Virus record (IMG/VR): IMGVR_UViG_2698536454_000020
Location: 1 to 26,079 of that record
Length of the DNA stretch: 26,079 bases
Reading direction: 5' to 3' (one strand)
Source: a virus
Lineage: Duplodnaviria > Heunggongvirae > Uroviricota > Caudoviricetes
Positions 1-26,079 of the stretch are shown here, piece by piece. Positions within the stretch are counted from its first letter, which is position 1, and each line of letters opens with the position of its first letter. The translations under genes and the position numbers were made by a program. A model generated the notes under the pieces. That model searched no databases. It was not told the DNA's origin and saw only the letters and a program-made list of their open reading frames with translations.

Positions 1-981
1 TTATAACGTCACTCCGCCTTTTAGTGGATTCAGAGCGACGGCATTTTGCAGATAGTCAGGCGCAAGGTGCGCATAGGCCATCGTCTGCTGAATGCTCGCA
101 TGTCCCAGAATCTGTTGCAGTGCGATTATATTGCCCCCATTCATCATGAAATGGCTTGCGAATGTATGCCGCAGGATGTGGGTTGCCTGATTGGGTGGTA
201 TATCAGGTTTCACTCTGCGTAAAATCCCGCAAAATTTCTCATAATCAACTTTGAATAATTTGGCGCTGGCCTCCTCTTTAACTTTTTTCTCCAGTTCCTC
301 AGAAATCGGCACGGTTCGCTTTTTACCGTTTTTGGTTTTCAGGAAGGTAACCCTGCAATTTGTAATCTGTGCTGGTTTTAGCGTGGCAACTTCCGTCCAT
401 CTTCCTCCAGTGCTCAGACATAAAAGCGCGACAAGTAAGTCATCACCAGCCAAAACATTTAACAGTTTTTCGATTTCTGCTTTTTCCAGGAACGTCATTT
501 CAGGGTTGGCTTCCGCCAGTGGCGGCAGTCCGTGAATTGGGTGTTGCCCGGAAAATTCATCCAATTGAATTAATTTTGTGAACATGCCGGATAATCGGTA
601 CATGTCACGGTTTATCGTTGCGGCACTGATACCATCACGTAGTCGCATGGAACGATAATCCATCAAAGCCCTTTTGCTCATCCTGCTCACTGGTATATCA
701 CCTATGCCGCTGATGGTTTTGAGTAGATGATTAAACTCTTTTGTTCCATGCTCGTGGTTTTGCCCGTGATATTTCCACCAGATGTCCAGCAACTCACTCA
801 AAGTCCGGCGGTCTGCTCGCTGGCCTCCCCATTCTTTCTGACTGGCATTGGCGATTGTGTATCGCTCAAATGCTAGTGCTTCAGCTTTTCTTTCGAATTT
901 CCTGCGGATGCGTTTTCCGTCGCGGCCGCGAGGTCTAATGTCCACTTCATAGCGACCATCATCGAGCTTCTTAATTGCCAT
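1..981 (-). CDS. int: Phage integrase, tyrosine recombinase (P2 Int-like). ORF is open to 1011, but the ATG at 981 (MAIKKLDDG...) has a GGAGG Shine-Dalgarno 8 nt upstream and matches the remembered P2 Int N-terminus.
   Basis: ORF track 1..1011 (-); C-terminal region carries the tyrosine-recombinase signature (HxLRHTFAS ... AYAHL); position at the prophage edge, divergent from the repressor as in P2. Confidence 0.88.
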   Translation of the reverse strand: MAIKKLDDGRYEVDIRPRGRDGKRIRRKFERKAEALAFERYTIANASQKEWGGQRADRRTLSELLDIWWKYHGQNHEHGTKEFNHLLKTISGIGDIPVSRMSKRALMDYRSMRLRDGISAATINRDMYRLSGMFTKLIQLDEFSGQHPIHGLPPLAEANPEMTFLEKAEIEKLLNVLAGDDLLVALLCLSTGGRWTEVATLKPAQITNCRVTFLKTKNGKKRTVPISEELEKKVKEEASAKLFKVDYEKFCGILRRVKPDIPPNQATHILRHTFASHFMMNGGNIIALQQILGHASIQQTMAYAHLAPDYLQNAVALNPLKGGVTL

Positions 982-1050
982 AAGAAAGCCCTCCGGCGCT
1001 GTATTCACCATCTTGGTAGCAAATGGTGAAAATGTAATCTTTATATAGAG

Positions 1051-6107: not shown

Positions 6108-6482
6108 ATGGGGAAGCAAGGCAAAGGCAAAGGCAACAAAAATCAGGTTAAGGTTACGTGGGCTCAGGCGTGGCGGGATGTAATGATAAGAGCCATGTCT
6201 AATGGTCAGTTGATACCTATTACCATCAGTATTATTTTAATGATTGCTGCATGGAGGTTACCAAAAACTGACTTGTCCAATTTAGCCTTCTCTATTGTTG
6301 ATGGCTTTAAGGAGCATTCCTTGGTTGGTTGGGCTATCTCGGTAATAGTGGGTTTGGCTTGGTCTGCACATGCGCGAATCATGAGGCGCTGTTTTAGTTC
6401 CGAGGCACAGAGAATCGGTAACGAGAAAACAAAGTATCAACAAAGACAGACCACTCAAGCCTTGGGTACAAGTGATAAATAG
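6108..6482 (+). CDS. Small membrane protein, 124 aa, lysine-rich N-terminus and two predicted TM helices
   Basis: ORF track; hydrophobic stretches LIPITISIILMIAAW and LVGWAISVIVGLAWSA; low-GC island in the P2 tin/old hotspot slot. Confidence 0.55.
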   Translation: MGKQGKGKGNKNQVKVTWAQAWRDVMIRAMSNGQLIPITISIILMIAAWRLPKTDLSNLAFSIVDGFKEHSLVGWAISVIVGLAWSAHARIMRRCFSSEAQRIGNEKTKYQQRQTTQALGTSDK

Positions 6483-6502
6483 TTGTTTATTTAGGAGTTA
6501 TT

Positions 6503-7060
6503 ATGCTGACAGTGCTGTTTTATGTGCTGTTGGGTTTAGGCGCAGCACACTTCATTTACGAGCGAATCATTTTGCCGTCCATCCGACTTCATTATAGAAA
6601 CCAATTGTTTGCGCTTCGTGATGTCGCTAGGAGGAAAATCATTGATGGAGGTTCCGATACTTCCATGCAAGCGGCAACACTTGTGCATGACTCATTGAAT
6701 AACGCTATCAATAGATTGCATTTACTCACGTTGCCAAACAAATTTCGTGCTCAAAAGCGTATGGCAGAAAACCATGCAATAAGGCAGAAAATTCGGCGTG
6801 AGATAGATGTTTTCAAACGCTGTGATGATAGAGAAGTTGTTGATGTACTGTTTAAATCCGGTCGGATACTTGAAAATGTACTGTTATTCAATAGCTTAAT
6901 GTTATTGCTTTACATGTTTCCATTTGTCCTTGCTGTATGGTTCTGTGTTAGGGTCATAAAGACAGCAAGTAGTTTAGTACAGTGGGTCAAAGGAAGAGAT
7001 TTAGAGGAAGCTATAATGCTGCTTCCTGATACTCAGGTTGAAAAGGTTGTATACGCATAA
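6503..7060 (+). CDS. Membrane protein, 185 aa, N-terminal TM helix, central soluble region, C-terminal TM helix
   Basis: ORF track; AGGAG Shine-Dalgarno at 6493..6497; hydrophobic segments at residues about 2..18 and 128..150; 20 bp downstream of the preceding ORF. Confidence 0.6.
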   Translation: MLTVLFYVLLGLGAAHFIYERIILPSIRLHYRNQLFALRDVARRKIIDGGSDTSMQAATLVHDSLNNAINRLHLLTLPNKFRAQKRMAENHAIRQKIRREIDVFKRCDDREVVDVLFKSGRILENVLLFNSLMLLLYMFPFVLAVWFCVRVIKTASSLVQWVKGRDLEEAIMLLPDTQVEKVVYA

Positions 7061-7062
7061 AA

Positions 7063-7089
7063 ATCACCCCTTAGGGGGTGATTTTTTTA
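7063..7089 (+). terminator. Rho-independent terminator after the membrane-protein operon
   Basis: ATCACCCC-TTAG-GGGGTGAT perfect 8-bp stem followed by TTTTTTT, immediately after the stop at 7058..7060. Confidence 0.65.
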
Positions 7090-7255
7090 CATGACTTTTG
7101 ATTAGCTGACATTGTAAATCCGCATGTATCAGATGCATTGTTTTGCATGTGGAAATGGGTGTTTTCACTGCCAGCTATCGCTACATGTAGCAAAAACACG
7201 GGCTTAATAAGAAATCATTCTGCCATAAGGCATAACTTCCCCGCGTGCTCAGGTA

Positions 7256-7285
7256 TTGACGTCATAGATATGGATCTTTTTTAAT
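7256..7285 (+). promoter_or_regulatory. Candidate promoter for the TIR-like gene
   Basis: TTGACG (7256..7261), 17-18 bp spacer, TTTAAT-like -10; AAGG Shine-Dalgarno before the ATG at 7300. Confidence 0.3.
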
Positions 7286-7299
7286 CAAGGTATGGTATT

Positions 7300-8247
7300 A
7301 TGAAGATATTTATTAGTTGGTCAGGTCAGGACAGCCTGGAGATAGCAAAAGTATTACGGGATTGGATACCGAATGTTATTCAAGTAGCTGAGCCGTACGT
7401 ATCAGCGGAAGATATTGATAAAGGCACTCGCTGGGCGACTGATATATCAAAGGAACTTGATGACTCTTCTTATGGGATTATTTGCCTTACAAAAAATAAT
7501 ATTAATGCACCGTGGATAAATTTTGAGGCGGGTGCTTTAGGTAAAAAGGTTGATAAGAGCCGGGTTAGTCCTTTCTTGTTTAAAATTAAACCATCTGAGA
7601 TAACAGGCCCAATATTACAATTCCAGTATACTCGTTCGGATGATAAGAACGATATTTTGAAGTTGATGTTGTCAATAAATAATCAAGCAGGATTTTTGAC
7701 TGAAGAACGCTTAACTAAAGCTTTCGAGCAATGGTGGCCAAGTTTAGAGCGTGAGTTAGATAACATTCAAGATATTAACCCTGTAGATAAAGATTCCACT
7801 AAAAAAACAAAAGGTGATTCGACTTCTGAGATACAAAATCTTTCCAAAATTGTTGAAAGTTTGCTGGATATTAGCCGAACAAATCACCAATTATTGCGTG
7901 ATCCAGCATCATTATTGCCAGAAGAATATGTTAGCAAAATAATAAACAGGGAAGGGCGTAAAGAAACTGTTTTAAAAATTGTAGCTTCTGATTTATTATC
8001 CATGCATCATTCACTAATTCGTGTAAAAAGAAGATTTATTCGCCGTGGTATTGATGAAACATCTAGGAGCGAGTTAATTGAATCATTAAATAAAATGATA
8101 ATGGATTGTTCTAGAGTAATCGCTCACTTAGATAATTATTGTGGGGCTTCATCAAACAATATGTTCAATAGTGCGCTTAGATTGCGGACCAGAAATTTAA
8201 TTGACATGATGGATGAGGAGGATGCAGAACGGGATGAAATGGAATAA
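7300..8247 (+). CDS. TIR-like domain protein (N-terminal ~135 aa) fused to an unrecognised ~175-aa helical C-terminal domain; candidate anti-phage NADase or signal-generating protein
   Basis: N-terminus MKIFISWSGQDS and the block ICLTKNNINAPWINFEAG (W72, E76; GAG at 7525..7527) fit the bacterial TIR-like pattern (F-I-S-x-S/H start, [SA]-x-W-[CI]-x-x-E). Own promoter and terminator-bounded unit; low GC. Confidence 0.6.
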   Translation: MKIFISWSGQDSLEIAKVLRDWIPNVIQVAEPYVSAEDIDKGTRWATDISKELDDSSYGIICLTKNNINAPWINFEAGALGKKVDKSRVSPFLFKIKPSEITGPILQFQYTRSDDKNDILKLMLSINNQAGFLTEERLTKAFEQWWPSLERELDNIQDINPVDKDSTKKTKGDSTSEIQNLSKIVESLLDISRTNHQLLRDPASLLPEEYVSKIINREGRKETVLKIVASDLLSMHHSLIRVKRRFIRRGIDETSRSELIESLNKMIMDCSRVIAHLDNYCGASSNNMFNSALRLRTRNLIDMMDEEDAERDEME

Positions 8248-8320: not shown

Positions 8321-8791
8321 GTATATCGCTTATAATGGGTATGTTATTTTTATTTTGATAAAATCATTAAAATTGTCGATGTTATATGAATGCACATGTA
8401 TTATTAATGTTAGAAGATTATGCCTGCTTACGGCTATTGTGCTGAATTCAACTATGAACGCATCAGTATTAAAATCGTTCCATGAAATGTTCTTCGTCTA
8501 CAGCAGATGATGGGCAACGAAAAAATGACGCTGAGTGAGTTGGTCGGGGAGAATTGTTAGAGGTATTTATGGAGTGGTTTAATAATATCGGTCAATCCTG
8601 AGTTGCAGCATCACATAGACGATAGGGAATCTCTCCAGTCGTTCTGGAATGGCAGCGTTGAACAACAAGCACAGCGAGGCGTTAGATGCCCATCAGATTG
8701 ACACAGAGGGTTTATGAATCGCTGGGATTTACTTAGTTTGAAAAATAATATATTTATATGTTTTTGTATTGTGTTTGTTAAGGAGTTTGGA

Positions 8792-8999: not shown

Positions 9000-9917
9000 A
9001 TGGATTATACGAGCTATATAATAGGGCAGCTTCAGGTTGAGGATATTATTGATGCAATTAAAGGCGTTAATAATACTAATGTCATAAAAGATTATGTGCT
9101 GCCTGTAGTATTACCAATTATATCTTCTGTGCTGAGTTACTTTATTGCAACTAGGTTGTTTTATCGGCAGGAGTACCTTAAAGCACAAAGAAGAAAGGTA
9201 AGCGTTGTAAATAAATGTATTTATGACTACTTTTCTGCAATGACAACGTTGTTGCAAATTAAAGGGAATTATTATGGTGGGGTAAGTATAAGTGAAAATC
9301 CTATCGAGAGGGCTTTAGCTTTTCCTGTTGTGGTTTTTTCTGGTGCTCCTCTATCATCAGATTTAAGTGAGTTGGCCTGTATATTGAGTCAAAAGGGAGT
9401 AGGGAATAATAGAGAGACAGCAAAGACTACTAACTGGGGGGATGCTTTTGCTGTTAGTGATATAGCAAGAAGGTTTAACAGCCTATTGGCTGCATTAAAT
9501 GTTAGGAATGATTTTGATGACACCTATAGAGGAATGATTATTGAATCAACAGGTTCACCTTTGCCTACGATGCGTTTTAAAAATGATGATATTGTTAATG
9601 CTATAGGTAGTAATAAGGCAGCTTATTACATTGATATTACTGAGCAAATAATGATTATGATAGATGTTTTGTTGCTTGATATTAATCTGTTGCTCAAAGA
9701 GTTGCCATTGTATGCTGAATCGCTGTTTGACAAAAGAGTAATGCAAGAAGATTCAGGGATTCTTAAATTCAATGATTTGCACGAACGTTTTCCTCTACTT
9801 ATGAAACCTGTAACGCCACCTTCGATTAAACTCATGTCTGATTATTTGGGGTACAGTGAAGATGAGATCTTACGACGCTATCCATACCCGTTCTTTAATA
9901 TGCATGATTGTGAATGA
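9000..9917 (+). CDS. Hypothetical membrane-anchored protein, 305 aa, one N-proximal TM helix, no recognisable domain
   Basis: ORF track; ATG overlaps the lipoprotein gene stop region (TGATAATG), implying co-transcription; hydrophobic segment VLPVVLPIISSVLSYFIAT; AT-rich codon usage. Confidence 0.6.
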   Translation: MDYTSYIIGQLQVEDIIDAIKGVNNTNVIKDYVLPVVLPIISSVLSYFIATRLFYRQEYLKAQRRKVSVVNKCIYDYFSAMTTLLQIKGNYYGGVSISENPIERALAFPVVVFSGAPLSSDLSELACILSQKGVGNNRETAKTTNWGDAFAVSDIARRFNSLLAALNVRNDFDDTYRGMIIESTGSPLPTMRFKNDDIVNAIGSNKAAYYIDITEQIMIMIDVLLLDINLLLKELPLYAESLFDKRVMQEDSGILKFNDLHERFPLLMKPVTPPSIKLMSDYLGYSEDEILRRYPYPFFNMHDCE

Positions 9918-20428: not shown

Positions 20429-21337
20429 ATGCCGATTATCGACCTGAACCAGCTACCCGCACCGGATGTGGTCGAGGAGCTGGACTTTGAAACCATTCTT
20501 GCCGAACGCAAGGCGACACTGATTTCCCTTTACCCGGAAGACCAGCAGGAGGCGGTCGCCCGTACCCTGACGCTGGAATCCGAGCCTCTCGTCAAACTGC
20601 TGGAGGAAAATGCTTATCGTGAGCTTATCTGGCGTCAGCGTGTGAATGAGGCCGCACGGGCGGTGATGCTGGCTTGTGCCGCCGGTAATGACCTTGATGT
20701 GATTGGTGCCAATTTCAACACCACGCGCCTGATTATCACCCCGGCAGATGATTCGACTATCCCGCCGACACCGGCAGTGATGGAATCTGACACGGATTAT
20801 CGTCTGCGTATTCAGCAGGCGTTTGAGGGCTTAAGCGTCGCCGGGTCGGTGGGAGCCTATCAGTATCATGGTCGCAGTGCTGACGGGCGTGTCGCCGATA
20901 TCTCTGTCACCAGTCCGTCTCCGGCCTGCGTCACTATCTCCGTGCTGTCACGTGAAAATAACGGCGTCGCATCCGAAGACCTGCTGGCCGTGGTGCGTAA
21001 CGCCCTTAATGGCGAGGACGTCAGGCCGGTGGCCGACCGCGTGACCGTGCAGTCTGCCGCCATCGTTGAATACCAGATAAACGCCACGCTGTATCTTTAC
21101 CCTGGTCCCGAAAGCGAACCCATTCGCGCTGCCGCCGTGAAAAAACTGGAAGCGTATATCACGGCACAGCACCGGCTGGGGCGCGACATCCGTCTGTCTG
21201 CCATTTATGCCGCTTTGCATGTGGAAGGCGTGCAGCGTGTCGAACTGGCTGCACCGCTGGCCGACATCGTGCTCAACAGTACGCAGGCGTCTTTCTGTAC
21301 CGAATACCGCGTCGTGACCGGAGGCTCGGATGAGTGA
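20429..21337 (+). CDS. J: Baseplate protein J-like, 302 aa
   Basis: 302-aa ORF, same length as P2 gpJ; synteny. Confidence 0.85.
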   Translation: MPIIDLNQLPAPDVVEELDFETILAERKATLISLYPEDQQEAVARTLTLESEPLVKLLEENAYRELIWRQRVNEAARAVMLACAAGNDLDVIGANFNTTRLIITPADDSTIPPTPAVMESDTDYRLRIQQAFEGLSVAGSVGAYQYHGRSADGRVADISVTSPSPACVTISVLSRENNGVASEDLLAVVRNALNGEDVRPVADRVTVQSAAIVEYQINATLYLYPGPESEPIRAAAVKKLEAYITAQHRLGRDIRLSAIYAALHVEGVQRVELAAPLADIVLNSTQASFCTEYRVVTGGSDE

Positions 21338-21941
21338 TTCGCGACTGCTGCCGACCGGCTCATCGCCGCTTGAAGTCGCCGCCGCAAAAGCCTGTGCGGA
21401 AATTGAAAAAACGCCGGTCAGTATTCGTGAGCTGTGGAACCCGGATACCTGTCCGGCAAATCTGCTGCCGTGGCTGGCGTGGTCATTTTCGGTTGACCGC
21501 TGGGATGATAAGTGGCCGGAAGCGACAAAACGCGCTGTTATCCGCGATGCGTATTTCATTCACTGCCATAAGGGCACTATAGGCGCAATCCGGCGTGTGG
21601 TGGAGCCGCTCGGCTATCTGATTGAGGTGAGGGAGTGGTGGCAGCTCAACGAGGAGCCGGGGACGTTCCGCATCGTTGTTGGCGTGCTTGAGCAGGGTAT
21701 TACCGAGGAAATGTATCAGGAGCTGGAGCGCCTCGTTGCTGATGCAAAACCGGCAAGCCGCCATCTGACGGGACTGGCTATCAGTTTAAGTACAACCGGC
21801 AACATTTTTGCCGGTGCAGGATGCTATCACGGCGACGCCCTGACGGTTTATCCCTACACCCCGGAGGCCATTATTGTCGGAGGGGATTATTTCCCGGCCT
21901 CGGCCATTCATTTAATTGATAACCTGAGAGTAAACGCATGA
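21330..21941 (+). CDS. I: Baseplate/tail protein I-like, 203 aa
   Basis: ORF overlapping the J stop and the H start; synteny. Its 3' 234 bp lie inside the long inverted repeat. Confidence 0.78.
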   Translation: MSDSRLLPTGSSPLEVAAAKACAEIEKTPVSIRELWNPDTCPANLLPWLAWSFSVDRWDDKWPEATKRAVIRDAYFIHCHKGTIGAIRRVVEPLGYLIEVREWWQLNEEPGTFRIVVGVLEQGITEEMYQELERLVADAKPASRHLTGLAISLSTTGNIFAGAGCYHGDALTVYPYTPEAIIVGGDYFPASAIHLIDNLRVNA

Positions 21942-22783
21942 CAGTGAAATACTACGCCATTCTGACTAATCAGGGCGCAGCACGGCTGGCTAACGCGACG
22001 ATGCTCGGCAGTAAGCTGAATCTGACGCAAATGGCAGTTGGTGATGCGAATGGTGTCTTGCCGACACCAGACCCGGCACAGACAAAACTGATTAACCAGA
22101 AACGCATCGCGCCGCTGAATCTTCTGAGTGTTGACCCGAACAACCAGAGCCAGATTATTGCGGAGCAAATCATCCCTGAGAACGAGGGCGGATTCTGGAT
22201 CCGTGAGATTGGGCTTTATGATGATGAAGGCGTACTCATTGCGGTGGCGAACTGCCCGGAAACGTACAAACCGCAGTTGCAGGAAGGCAGTGGTCGTACC
22301 CAGACTATCCGCATGATTCTGGTTGTCACGAATACCGAAGCTATTACGCTGAAAATCGACCCGTCGGTGGTACTGGCGACCCGTAAATATGTGGATGATG
22401 AAGTCCTGGAATTAAGGCTGTATGTGGATGACCAGATGAGCAAACACATTGCCGCACAGGACCCTCATACCCAGTATGCACAGAAACATAATCCGACATT
22501 TACCGGAGAACCAAAAGCGCCGACGCCTGCCGCAGGAAATAACACCACGCGGATTGCGACCACTGCGTTTGTACAGGCCGCTATTACCGCTCTGATTAAC
22601 GGTGCGCCTGACACGCTGGACACACTGAAAGAAATTGCCGCGGCCATTAACAATGACCCGAAATTCAGCACCACCATTAACAATGCGCTGGCAGGTAAAC
22701 AACCGCTGGACAATACGCTGACTCATTTGAGCGGAAAGGATGTTGCCGGTCTTCTCGCATACCTTGGTTTGGGAGAAGGTGCT
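21708..22783. repeat. Left arm of a 1076-bp near-perfect inverted repeat (3' end of I, constant part of H, site 1)
   Basis: Reverse-complement identity with 24492..25567 (coordinates sum to 47275); confirmed by identical ORFs on opposite strands (22412..22726 - and 24549..24863 +; 21908..22168 - and 25107..25367 +). Confidence 0.85.
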
Positions 22784-23221
22784 CCAGCTATTGGCGTTCC
22801 GTTCTTCTGGCCGTCCGCTGCAATGCCAAATACTGTAATCGACAGCTGGTCCAGTATGGTGTTTTTGAAGTTCAACGGCGCGAAATTCTCTGCCACTGAT
22901 TATCCTGTGCTGGCGAAAGTATTTCCTTCGCTGGTATTACCTGAAGCCCGCGGTGATTTCATTCGTATCTGGGATGACGGGCGAGGTACAGACGGTGGTC
23001 GCGAATTATTAAGCTGGCAGGCAGCTACAAACTTTTCTCAGTTTGCCGGGAATATAGGCGGAGGTGCGGGACACGCAATTAACTTTCATGATGGCATCGC
23101 CGGAAATCAGCCAGGATTTTCACGATTTAATTTAACCAGTAACTCTGTGGGTGATGGTGTGAATTTTGTTGCTGTCAGACCGCGAAATATTGCATTTAAC
23201 TTTCTGGTGAGGGCTAAATAA
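21938..23221 (+). CDS. H: Tail fibre protein H-like, 427 aa: constant N-terminal part (to about 22765) plus variable C-terminal cassette Hv1
   Basis: ORF track; N-terminal domain typical of P2/Mu-type tail fibres; a hix/gix-like crossover site lies in frame at 22752..22777. Confidence 0.82.
   Translation: MTVKYYAILTNQGAARLANATMLGSKLNLTQMAVGDANGVLPTPDPAQTKLINQKRIAPLNLLSVDPNNQSQIIAEQIIPENEGGFWIREIGLYDDEGVLIAVANCPETYKPQLQEGSGRTQTIRMILVVTNTEAITLKIDPSVVLATRKYVDDEVLELRLYVDDQMSKHIAAQDPHTQYAQKHNPTFTGEPKAPTPAAGNNTTRIATTAFVQAAITALINGAPDTLDTLKEIAAAINNDPKFSTTINNALAGKQPLDNTLTHLSGKDVAGLLAYLGLGEGAPAIGVPFFWPSAAMPNTVIDSWSSMVFLKFNGAKFSATDYPVLAKVFPSLVLPEARGDFIRIWDDGRGTDGGRELLSWQAATNFSQFAGNIGGGAGHAINFHDGIAGNQPGFSRFNLTSNSVGDGVNFVAVRPRNIAFNFLVRAK
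22752..22777 (+). other. hix/gix-like 26-bp recombination site 1 (TTCTCGCATACCTTGGTTTGGGAGAA) inside H
   Basis: Imperfect palindrome around a central TT; resembles remembered hixL TTCTTGAAAACCAAGGTTTTTGATAA and gixR; sits exactly at the constant/variable boundary of H. Confidence 0.6.
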
Positions 23222-23814
23222 TGAAACCTGTTTTTGATGAAAATGGGCTGGCTACAGTGCCGGGCGATATGCGTTGTTTTTATTATGATGCTGAAACATC
23301 TGAGTATACGGGCTGGTCTGATGAATATATTAATACTGGCGTAAGTATGCCCGCCTGTTCCACTGGTATTGACCCGGGCGAAAACATTCCGGGGAAAGTG
23401 GCAGTATTTACGGGTAAGGAATGGAGCTATGAAGAAGACCATCGCAATGAGACTGTTTACTCAACAGAAAATGGCGCAGCTGTTACAGTGGATTATATCG
23501 GTGCCATCAAAAACGGTTATGTCACGCTTTCACCGTTAACGCCATATGATAAATGGGATGGTGAGAAATGGGTGACAGATACTGAGGCACAGCATAACGC
23601 CGCAGTAGAAGCAGCAGAAGCACAGCGCCAGTCACTGATTGATGCAGCAATGGCTTCCATTAGTCTGATTCAGCTGAAATTACAGGCCGGACGGAAACTG
23701 ACTCAGGCAGAAACAACCCGACTTAACGCCGTGCTGGATTACATTGACGCGGTGACGGCAACAGATACCAGCACCGCGCCGGATGTCATCTGGCCTGAAC
23801 TGCCGGAGGCGTAG
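23221..23814 (+). CDS. G: Tail fibre assembly protein (Tfa/gpG/Mu-U family), 197 aa
   Basis: Immediately follows H; C-terminal ...[13 protein letters not shown] motif typical of tail-fibre assembly chaperones. Confidence 0.78.
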
Positions 23815-24214
23815 GCCATTCAATATCGGGTGCTGTTGAAGTATCAACACGCATCAGCAGCACACGGTATTTCTTCCATTCGGTGAGAGTTGAAGTTTCT
23901 TCATCAGTTGCGATATCAGCATCAACAGCATCCTGACGCCAGGATATTTCACTGTCAGCTTTTTCCCGTAATTGGGATTTTTTAACTTCAGTAATAGCTA
24001 TTAATTCCTTTTTGGTCGGCTGAGGAATATCTATCAGTGCTGGTTTTCCATTCAGTGTTCCAATCTGTTTTCCTGGTGGAATATCCATAAATAACTTTTT
24101 ATGTTCTTCCTCACTGACTATTACACCATCATCAGGCCACAGACCTGATGCCTCAAATTTTTCTTTCTCCGATATGGGGAAAAAGCCATTTGCTTTAGCG
24201 CTCCATACGTACAT
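23786..24214 (-). CDS. Second, convergent tail fibre assembly protein (alternative Tfa), 142 aa
   Basis: Minus-strand ORF; C-terminus ...[20 protein letters not shown] shares the Tfa motif; 3' ends of the two tfa genes overlap at 23786..23814. Confidence 0.72.
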
Positions 24215-24511
24215 ATCAATACCCCACCGCTATAATGTCCACATTAAATCCCCCGGGACCTGCCTGCCAGATGCTGGCCCCTGTTAATGATTTTGTTTGA
24301 TGAACAACCGCCACATTTGCTGGCGATTGTGTTTCAGTTGTTACAGTACCGATATCATTCCAGTTAATTGAGATGGAATAGTTCGTTGTTGTAAACGACC
24401 GTGGGAAAGTTATGTGTCTTACATTGGTGCCAACAGGAAATCCAAGATAAACACGCTGAATTATCATTCCTCCAGGTAACATAACCCAGTTAGCACCTTC
24501 TCCAAAACCAA
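24122..24511. repeat. First copy of a 390-bp direct repeat (5' end of the minus-strand tfa gene, Hv2 cassette, half of the crossover site)
   Basis: Identical to 25569..25958 (offset 1447 bp); the copies diverge at the centre of the crossover sites. Confidence 0.85.
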
Positions 24512-25337
24512 GGTATGCGAGAAGACCGGCAACATCCTTTCCGCTCAAATGAGTCAGCGTATTGTCCAGCGGTTGTTTACCTGCCAGCGCATTGTTAATG
24601 GTGGTGCTGAATTTCGGGTCATTGTTAATGGCCGCGGCAATTTCTTTCAGTGTGTCCAGCGTGTCAGGCGCACCGTTAATCAGAGCGGTAATAGCGGCCT
24701 GTACAAACGCAGTGGTCGCAATCCGCGTGGTGTTATTTCCTGCGGCAGGCGTCGGCGCTTTTGGTTCTCCGGTAAATGTCGGATTATGTTTCTGTGCATA
24801 CTGGGTATGAGGGTCCTGTGCGGCAATGTGTTTGCTCATCTGGTCATCCACATACAGCCTTAATTCCAGGACTTCATCATCCACATATTTACGGGTCGCC
24901 AGTACCACCGACGGGTCGATTTTCAGCGTAATAGCTTCGGTATTCGTGACAACCAGAATCATGCGGATAGTCTGGGTACGACCACTGCCTTCCTGCAACT
25001 GCGGTTTGTACGTTTCCGGGCAGTTCGCCACCGCAATGAGTACGCCTTCATCATCATAAAGCCCAATCTCACGGATCCAGAATCCGCCCTCGTTCTCAGG
25101 GATGATTTGCTCCGCAATAATCTGGCTCTGGTTGTTCGGGTCAACACTCAGAAGATTCAGCGGCGCGATGCGTTTCTGGTTAATCAGTTTTGTCTGTGCC
25201 GGGTCTGGTGTCGGCAAGACACCATTCGCATCACCAACTGCCATTTGCGTCAGATTCAGCTTACTGCCGAGCATCGTCGCGTTAGCCAGCCGTGCTGCGC
25301 CCTGATTAGTCAGAATGGCGTAGTATTTCACTGTCAT
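24216..25337 (-). CDS. Alternative tail fibre gene (inverted copy of the H constant part fused to variable cassette Hv2), 373 aa
   Basis: Minus-strand ORF; the first 27x residues are identical to H, diverging right after the crossover site; the nucleotide sequence is the reverse complement of 21938..22783. Confidence 0.65.
24498..24523 (+). other. hix/gix-like recombination site 2 (TTCTCCAAAACCAAGGTATGCGAGAA), inverted relative to site 1
   Basis: Reverse complement of site 1 with one mismatch; lies at the Hv2/constant boundary. Confidence 0.6.
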
Positions 25338-25567
25338 GCGTTTACTCTCAGGTTATCAATTAAATGAATGGCCGAGGCCGGGAAATAATCCCCTCCGACA
25401 ATAATGGCCTCCGGGGTGTAGGGATAAACCGTCAGGGCGTCGCCGTGATAGCATCCTGCACCGGCAAAAATGTTGCCGGTTGTACTTAAACTGATAGCCA
25501 GTCCCGTCAGATGGCGGCTTGCCGGTTTTGCATCAGCAACGAGGCGCTCCAGCTCCTGATACATTTC
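25338..25567 (-). pseudogene. Inverted, 5'-truncated duplicate of the 3' end of gene I (last ~76 codons)
   Basis: C-terminus of minus ORF 25334..25666 is identical to the I C-terminus (MYQELERLVADAK...LRVNA); no corresponding 5' part. Confidence 0.6.
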
Positions 25568-25568
25568 A

Positions 25569-25958
25569 TACACCATCATCAGGCCACAGACCTGATGCCT
25601 CAAATTTTTCTTTCTCCGATATGGGGAAAAAGCCATTTGCTTTAGCGCTCCATACGTACATATCAATACCCCACCGCTATAATGTCCACATTAAATCCCC
25701 CGGGACCTGCCTGCCAGATGCTGGCCCCTGTTAATGATTTTGTTTGATGAACAACCGCCACATTTGCTGGCGATTGTGTTTCAGTTGTTACAGTACCGAT
25801 ATCATTCCAGTTAATTGAGATGGAATAGTTCGTTGTTGTAAACGACCGTGGGAAAGTTATGTGTCTTACATTGGTGCCAACAGGAAATCCAAGATAAACA
25901 CGCTGAATTATCATTCCTCCAGGTAACATAACCCAGTTAGCACCTTCTCCAAAACCAA
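25569..25958. repeat. Second copy of the 390-bp direct repeat
   Basis: See first copy; begins abruptly after the inverted I fragment (junction at 25568). Confidence 0.85.
25663..25944 (-). other. Duplicate Hv2 variable tail-fibre cassette (promoterless, no constant N-terminal part attached)
   Basis: C-terminal 94 aa of minus ORF 25663..26064 are identical to the Hv2 C-terminus; upstream of it (beyond site 3) the reading frame is unrelated to H. Confidence 0.6.
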
Positions 25959-25970
25959 CGTTTATGAAAA
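25945..25970 (+). other. hix/gix-like recombination site 3 (TTCTCCAAAACCAACGTTTATGAAAA), outer boundary of the invertible region
   Basis: Left half identical to site 2, right half divergent but still matching the hix consensus (..AAACC NN GGTTT../..CGTTTATGAAAA); the flanking sequence to the right is not tail-fibre sequence, as for gixR next to gin in Mu. Confidence 0.55.
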
Positions 25971-26079
25971 TGCAGAGATAAGTAAGCGTCGTCTCAGCAC
26001 CGTCTGGCAGATCCTGAAATTCCTGAGAGAATAGTGGACACCAAATATGGTGGACGCTATCCATGAAATCATTAACCGC

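Follow-up and report, generated by a model that had tools for sequence, protein, structure and literature searches.

The window analysed here is a stretch of 26,079 nucleotides of viral DNA, positions 1 to 26,079 of the IMG/VR record IMGVR_UViG_2698536454_000020, and its right end holds the tail-fibre gene H of a P2-like prophage together with an alternative fibre end and short crossover sites. We conclude that this locus is probably a canonical two-site inversion switch of the Din family (Pin/Gin-type) in the tail-fibre gene of an Escherichia coli prophage, combined with a misjoined assembly. An initial annotation, made from the sequence alone, had proposed a tail-fibre switch of the kind known from the G segment of Mu, the C segment of P1 and the P segment of e14. 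That proposal is supported by crossover sites matching the Din consensus, by the invertase gene that follows the right-hand site in relatives of the prophage, and by the occurrence of both orientations. The array of three sites described in the same annotation is not supported: sites 2 and 3 share their inner half and the same cassette, encoding the alternative C-terminus Hv2, and they are linked in the source record through an N alone.

The Din consensus given in Table 3 of PMC3241671, TTCNNNNAAACNNANGTTTNNNNGAA, was used to scan the 26-kb window, allowing up to two mismatches. Exactly three sites were found, at 22752-22777, 24498-24523 and 25945-25970, against 0.05 expected by chance, and none of 100 shuffled sequences reached three. 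The three hix/gix-like sites of the initial annotation are thus real features of the sequence at the very positions it gave. Site 1, the left crossover site (22752..22777), reads TTCTCGCATACC TT GGTTTGGGAGAA; its outer half belongs to the constant part of H and its inner half to the first variable part, Hv1, and the same site is present in E. coli HB-Coli0. Site 2 (24498..24523) reads TTCTCGCATACC TT GGTTTTGGAGAA on the minus strand, joining the outer half of the H constant part to the inner half of Hv2, and the same hybrid occurs in the flipped prophages of NMBU-W12E19 and SRR18429166. Site 3, the right crossover site (25945..25970), reads TTCTCCAAAACC AA CGTTTATGAAAA, or TTTTCATAAACG TT GGTTTTGGAGAA in the common orientation. 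Its inner half belongs to Hv2 and its outer half to the invertase side, in agreement with the earlier view of this site as the outer boundary next to the invertase.

All three sites have TT/AA at their centre (22764-65, 24510-11 and 25957-58), and these inverted, imperfectly palindromic 26-bp sequences match TTCNNNNAAACNNANGTTTNNNNGAA with an identical central dinucleotide in partner sites, as is characteristic of the Din family. Of the known sites, hix, cix and pix have AA at this place and gix has GA (PMC3241671). Formal comparison with known crossover sites, which the initial annotation had called for, bore out the Din consensus and revealed the closest resemblance to pix: site 3 shares 25 of 26 positions with pixR of e14, and site 1 shares 23 of 26 with pixL. 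Identities to hix, gix and cix ranged from 15 to 21 of 26, with 18-19 for gix and 18-21 for cix. A 39-nucleotide sequence containing site 3 is 92% identical to the pixR region of e14.

Site 1 spans codons 272-280 of H, with the central TT in codon 276. In its current state H (21938..23221, plus strand) comprises constant residues 1-277, of which residues 1-150 match the Pfam family Phage_tail_fib (E = 6e-63), followed by Hv1 at residues 278-427. An open reading frame (ORF) of 373 residues in the opposite orientation (24216..25337, minus strand) is identical to H over residues 1-277 and unrelated to it from residue 278 onward. Since the divergence begins at residue 278 and site 1 covers codons 272-280, H is indeed split by the site at its constant/variable boundary. 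Each of the two variable parts, Hv1 of 150 residues and Hv2 of 96 residues, has a chaperone gene of its own belonging to the Pfam family Caudo_TAP. The one paired with Hv1, tfa1 (23221..23814, plus strand; E = 8e-28), and the convergent one paired with Hv2, tfa2 (23786..24214, minus strand; E = 7e-33), are the two convergent tfa genes that had been recognized before. Hv2 itself (24216..24497, minus strand) is the alternative variable C-terminus, silent when the segment is unflipped. It matches the Pfam family Gp53-like_C with E = 1.7e-4 and 22.5 bits, below the gathering cut-off of 24.9 bits, and is annotated as a gp53-like domain protein in HB-Coli0. Gene I, encoding the P2 baseplate/tail protein I (21330..21941, plus strand; Pfam Tail_P2_I, E = 3e-56), lies directly upstream of H in the late operon.

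Relatives of the prophage, 98-100% identical to the window, were found in both orientations. The unflipped HB-Coli0 prophage carries, in order, I, H, tfa, a convergent tfa, the gp53-like Hv2, the site, a recombinase of 197 residues starting 55 nucleotides later, and a sheath gene. In the flipped NMBU-W12E19 prophage the H constant part continues into Hv2, with a promoterless Hv1 facing the recombinase. The Logan assembly of SRR18429166 contains the same prophage as the window in the flipped state, with two sites, without the duplication described below and without an insertion sequence (IS). The inner half-site in HB-Coli0 and NMBU-W12E19 differs by a G/T variant that moves with the cassette (GGTTTGGGAGAA with Hv1, GGTTTTGGAGAA with Hv2), and the outer halves remain with their flanks. 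Half-site variants that track the cassettes while the outer halves stay fixed are as predicted for strand exchange at the central dinucleotide. Of 5426 complete genomes of E. coli, 76 contained the junction of the H constant part, site and Hv1 and 19 the corresponding junction with Hv2; the source record of the window itself carries both. Places matching the region numbered two per E. coli genome in the median and 14 at most. In E. coli E308 (NZ_CP030281.1) the Hv1 junction lies at 4,543,305 and the Hv2 junction at 2,991,143; by its sequence this strain is a carrier of two related P2-like prophages in opposite switch states.

The initial annotation had found no invertase gene at the right end of the window, and this is true of the window as a whole, for which tblastn gave no invertase (best E = 8.6). 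An adjacent serine invertase would lie outside it, to judge from the SRR18429166, HB-Coli0 and NMBU-W12E19 prophages, where the gene starts 55 nucleotides past the site. The SRR18429166 enzyme (MLIGYVRVSTNDQNTELQ..., 197 residues) has Resolvase and HTH_7 domains and is 87% identical to PinE, and the invertases of the relatives share 87-88% with PinE; a homologue search with the SRR18429166 enzyme returned cluster representatives 96-97% identical to it. The HB-Coli0 invertase matched the Mu Gin structures 3UJ3 and 4M6F with E of about 1e-94 (for 3UJ3, E = 7e-95 over residues 1-182). A Fis-dependent recombinational enhancer near the 5' end of the gene is a further mark of the Din family; within the SRR18429166 invertase gene there is only one strict Fis-like 15-mer, at nucleotides 94-108, and, by eye, a looser G-N13-C match 48 bp upstream at nucleotides 46-60. 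A promoter scan of the interval from the right site to the invertase ATG of this prophage gave no sigma-70-like match. The same interval contains, at positions 8603-8622, a terminator-like hairpin followed by a run of T.

From these observations we propose that a serine invertase would recombine two inverted 26-bp sites through strand exchange at their central TT/AA. With the first site in codon 276 of H and the second just ahead of the invertase gene, the exchange would flip a segment of 1.74 kb. The 277 constant N-terminal residues of H would thereby be read either into Hv1 and tfa1 or into Hv2 and tfa2. By analogy with Mu, P1 and e14, inversion is inferred to change the receptor-binding tip of the fibre.

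Two sites suffice for such a switch, and the additional sequence in the window calls for a separate explanation. The public record that contains the window is GCA_001283365.1, where the window forms the last 26,079 nucleotides of the 52,362-nucleotide draft contig CYCS01000026.1, so that both stop at the same base. In their last 14 kb, record and window differ only at position 25568, which is N in CYCS01000026.1 and A in the window. To the left of this position, 24492-25567 is an inverted repeat of 21708-22783. This 1076-nucleotide repeat takes in the whole constant part of H and the last 234 nucleotides of gene I, and its single mismatch is the G/T difference in the inner half-site. This second, inverted copy of the end of I and the constant part of H (24512..25567, minus strand) completes, together with Hv2, the 373-residue H ORF, and 22764-25567 is 100% identical to the SRR18429166 prophage. 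To the right of the N, 25569..25958 (minus strand) is an exact 390-nucleotide direct repeat of 24122-24511, made up of codons 1-31 of tfa2, Hv2 and the inner half-site; its identity stops precisely at the central AA of site 3. An alternative variable cassette ending at an inverted copy of the site had been described earlier. The opposite orientation of the Hv2 cassette stands; its ending at site 2 does not, for the sequence runs on from site 2 into the 1076-nucleotide inverted repeat and then into the 390-nucleotide direct repeat.

Position 25568, which we read as a scaffold join, alone connects the inverted copy with the direct repeat. Because the only novel junction base is an N, the 1447 bases that the window has in excess of ordinary relatives depend on an unsequenced join. 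The A that stands in place of the N in the window masks the fact that the novel junction lacks sequence. Such a lone N is a typical trace of scaffolders and gap-fillers, left when contigs expected to touch or overlap are abutted and no overlap is found. Searches for the junction elsewhere were negative. A 44-nucleotide sequence across it had no match in genome_contigs, viral_contigs or metagenome_contigs, and megablast against the 5426 complete E. coli genomes returned half-matches only. Neither in these genomes nor in the phage collection did any place cover at least 80% of the full region as it appears in the window. Exact-protein searches with the junction-spanning ORFs (three alternative start codons) and with the ORF across the IS, site 3 and Hv2 gave no matches; the record has X/N at that place. 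Deletion of 24512-25958 from the window produced a gapless alignment of 5125 nucleotides to HB-Coli0. When the window was both flipped and collapsed, it aligned without gaps to NMBU-W12E19 over 5827 nucleotides and was identical to the SRR18429166 prophage over 6535 nucleotides except at the position of the N.

These data fit an assembly in which a first contig, running Hv2-site-H constant part-I', would correspond to the flipped state at its left junction, in reverse reading direction. A second, overlapping contig starting in tfa2 and running Hv2-site-flank-IS66 would be the right junction of the unflipped state, and the scaffolder would have abutted both with a single N. Sites 2 and 3 would then be one physical right-hand site in its two recombination states. 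Most likely, the second H constant part, the second copy of Hv2 and the third site do not belong to one molecule together with the first. That the join is an artefact, whichever the source of the flipped junction, we regard as very likely. The flipped junction itself probably derives from a subpopulation of the sequenced culture in which the segment had flipped. If it does, the assembly is in itself a record of switching in that culture.

Several considerations weigh against this account. The blocks end away from recombination sites, at the equivalents of 21708 (gene I) and 24122 (tfa2); contig stops at these places need extra branch points from homology to other prophages, or read-extension steps, which are plausible. 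The significance of a single N as a mark of a scaffolder or gap-filler is general knowledge of such tools, and the N could in principle also stand for an ambiguous call within a genuinely sequenced junction. Moreover, the artefact is deduced from assembled records.

The odd block boundaries would be accounted for by a single locus diverging at the equivalents of 21707 and 24121, as expected if the join were still an artefact and the stretch from the H constant part through the site to Hv2 came from another, related prophage carried by this genome. This prophage would be in the other state and share about 1.45 kb exactly with the resident one, and the assembler would have crossed between the two. 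Double carriage does exist, as E308 with both junctions and the multiple matching places in E. coli genomes (median 2, up to 14) attest. However, over 1076 nucleotides the copy at the flipped junction matches the resident H/I sequence with 100% identity. The contig also extends, by coordinates, for about 26 kb upstream of the int end of the prophage; a full second copy might have interrupted the assembly at the edge of the prophage. We therefore consider a second prophage a less likely source of the flipped junction than a subpopulation, and as an explanation of the record on the whole unlikely.

Alternatively, the three-site structure might be real. In this case a 1447-bp tandem duplication, covering the 3' part of I, the H constant part, the site, Hv2 and the first 31 codons of tfa2, would have arisen in the flipped state and been followed by an inversion between sites 1 and 3. 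Such a prophage would possess two complete H genes, three crossover sites and four possible arrangements, one of them with both H variants in the late operon. When we inverted the window in silico between the centres of sites 1 and 3, we indeed obtained a 1447-bp tandem repeat identical at 1446 of 1447 positions, the exception being the junction base, so that one illegitimate junction and one normal inversion would be enough to create the arrangement. Tail-fibre shufflons with three sites and four variants also exist in P2-like prophages of enteropathogenic E. coli (EPEC; PMC4272514). Yet the in-silico inversion does not discriminate between the two explanations, because the tail of any flipped-junction contig abutted to an overlapping unflipped contig yields the same geometry. 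The novel junction base that a real duplication requires is an N in the source record and was never sequenced, and the junction is missing from every collection searched. The otherwise identical SRR18429166 prophage lacks the duplication, and the third cassette duplicates Hv2 exactly and would confer no new specificity. A real three-site prophage thus appears distinctly unlikely, and we prefer the two-site switch with a misjoined assembly.

The sequence beyond site 3 accounts for the missing invertase gene. Identity to the IS-free prophage stops after ...TGCAGAGATAA at 25981, and from there to the end of the window (25982..26079, plus strand) lie the first 98 nucleotides of an ISEc22-type element of the IS66 family. 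Membership in this family rests on the terminal GTAAGCG, with which the element begins, and on the tnpA start at 26063. We defined the end of the element by aligning six copies with unrelated flanks, whose conserved end starts at the position equivalent to 25982; in one aligned ISEc22-type copy (L003), tnpA, tnpB and an ISEc22-family transposase follow the GTAAGCG end. The insertion is located 11 nucleotides past site 3 and 44 nucleotides upstream of the position that the invertase ATG has in the identical IS-free prophage. The invertase gene is therefore missing from the window because the IS66 element inserted past the right site and the contig stops 98 nucleotides inside it. Short-read contigs usually stop within multi-copy elements. 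The initial annotation had looked for the start of an invertase in 25971..26079; of this stretch, 25982-26079 is the left end of the IS66-family element and not flank of an invertase gene. The idea of another fibre constant part encoded on the minus strand of 25971-26079 was dropped, as this is IS66 sequence.

The IS66 element also enters into a variant of the view that the structure is real, in which a very recent 1447-bp duplication would be turning a two-state switch into a four-state shufflon while IS66 detached the invertase gene from the switch. We give this scenario little credence. On the preferred reading, the record probably keeps both switch states; if so, it hints at active inversion in the sequenced culture despite the IS66 element between the switch and the invertase gene.

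The aligned ISEc22-type copies (window 25971-25984 and loci L003-L007) are preceded by short A/T-rich flanks with GATA or GATG, namely GAGATAA, GGAGATAT, GGATATAA, AGATGACA and GCTGATAC. From the sequences of these flanks, such motifs may represent a target preference of these elements.

Among known systems, the P segment of e14 in E. coli K-12 with its invertase Pin (pixL/pixR, stfP-tfaP / tfaE-stfE, pinE) has the same order: an I-like gene, a fibre gene, tfa, a convergent tfa, a promoterless fibre C-terminus, the site and the invertase. Hv1 is 41% identical to StfE, and tfa1 is 64% identical to TfaE. In contrast, tfa2 is just 32% identical to TfaP, and Hv2 and tfa2 are distant from the e14 cassettes. 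The switch in the window also belongs to an apparently complete P2-like prophage, present from int to H, whereas e14 is a defective lambdoid remnant, and in the strain of the window an IS66 element separates the switch from the invertase gene. With Mu G/Gin and P1 C/Cin the locus shares a crossover site inside the tail-fibre ORF at the constant/variable boundary, a variable part with its own assembly gene and, to judge from relatives, an adjacent invertase. It differs from both in its P2-like backbone and in sites that are nearer to pix than to gix or cix, and from gix of Mu in its central dinucleotide, which is AA rather than GA. Judged by sequence, the switch would work like the invertible segments of Mu (G), P1 (C) and e14 (P), and e14 Pin is its closest counterpart in sites and enzyme.

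The switch is of a known kind, as inversion in P2-like prophages, including three-repeat shufflons, has already been published (PMC4272514). In P2-like prophages of EPEC E2348/69, Goldberg et al. (2014) described invertible fibre loci in which an invertase and inverted repeats give alternative C-termini, and sequencing and PCR revealed that both variants coexist in cultures (PMC4272514). Coexistence of both states was shown for e14 as well as for P2-like prophages (PMC4272514). The three-repeat locus of E2348/69 has three different C-termini; the third cassette of the window, unlike these, is an exact duplicate joined through an N. Multi-site shufflons such as Min of p15B and the EPEC three-repeat locus have at least three sites bounding different cassettes, and in the window site 3 adjoins a cassette 100% identical to the one at site 2. 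As biology the locus adds little, given that invertase-driven swapping of tail-fibre tips is textbook knowledge for Mu, P1 and e14 and that the same locus is present in about 95 complete E. coli genomes. What it does illustrate is that a phase-variable segment in a draft assembly can mimic a duplication and a multi-site shufflon.

Related fibre cassettes occur in phage records as well. The Hv1-tfa1 cassette (window 22753-23848) has about 95% DNA identity to a cassette in several Escherichia phages of 33-43 kb (ON470588.1, ON470579.1, ON470593.1), which we guess from their size and names to be Mu-like. One such phage, vB_EcoM-611R5, has an invertase about 0.8 kb from its Hv1-tfa1-like cassette. 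The similarity of these sequences suggests that fibre cassettes are exchanged between phage types.

The remainder of the window shows the organization of a P2-like prophage, from int (1..1011, minus strand) through C, cox, B and A, then Q, P, O, N, M and L, followed by genes for lysis and tail, as far as I, H and tfa. Prophages of this type are recognized by the gene order int, C, cox, B, A ... Q, P, O, N, M, L ... V, W, J, I, H, G together with marker families. The window agrees with a P2-like (Peduovirus-type) prophage in its matches to Int, GPA, Tail_P2_I and Phage_tail_fib, and Pfam families among the called genes of the source contig were GPO, cap_P2, GPL, tail_X, GpR, tail_S, base_V, GPW and Baseplate_J. 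In the variable region between the replication gene A and the packaging genes Q/P, an ORF of 305 residues (9000-9917, plus strand) had no match in Pfam or PADLOC. Three consecutive genes at 6108-8247 (plus strand) of the same region match the PADLOC TIR models 2TM-TIR (E = 2e-58), 1TM-TIR (E = 3e-75) and TIR-TM (E = 2e-118), the third gene also matching Pfam TIR_2. To judge by these matches, the three genes look like an anti-phage defence cassette in the variable region of P2.

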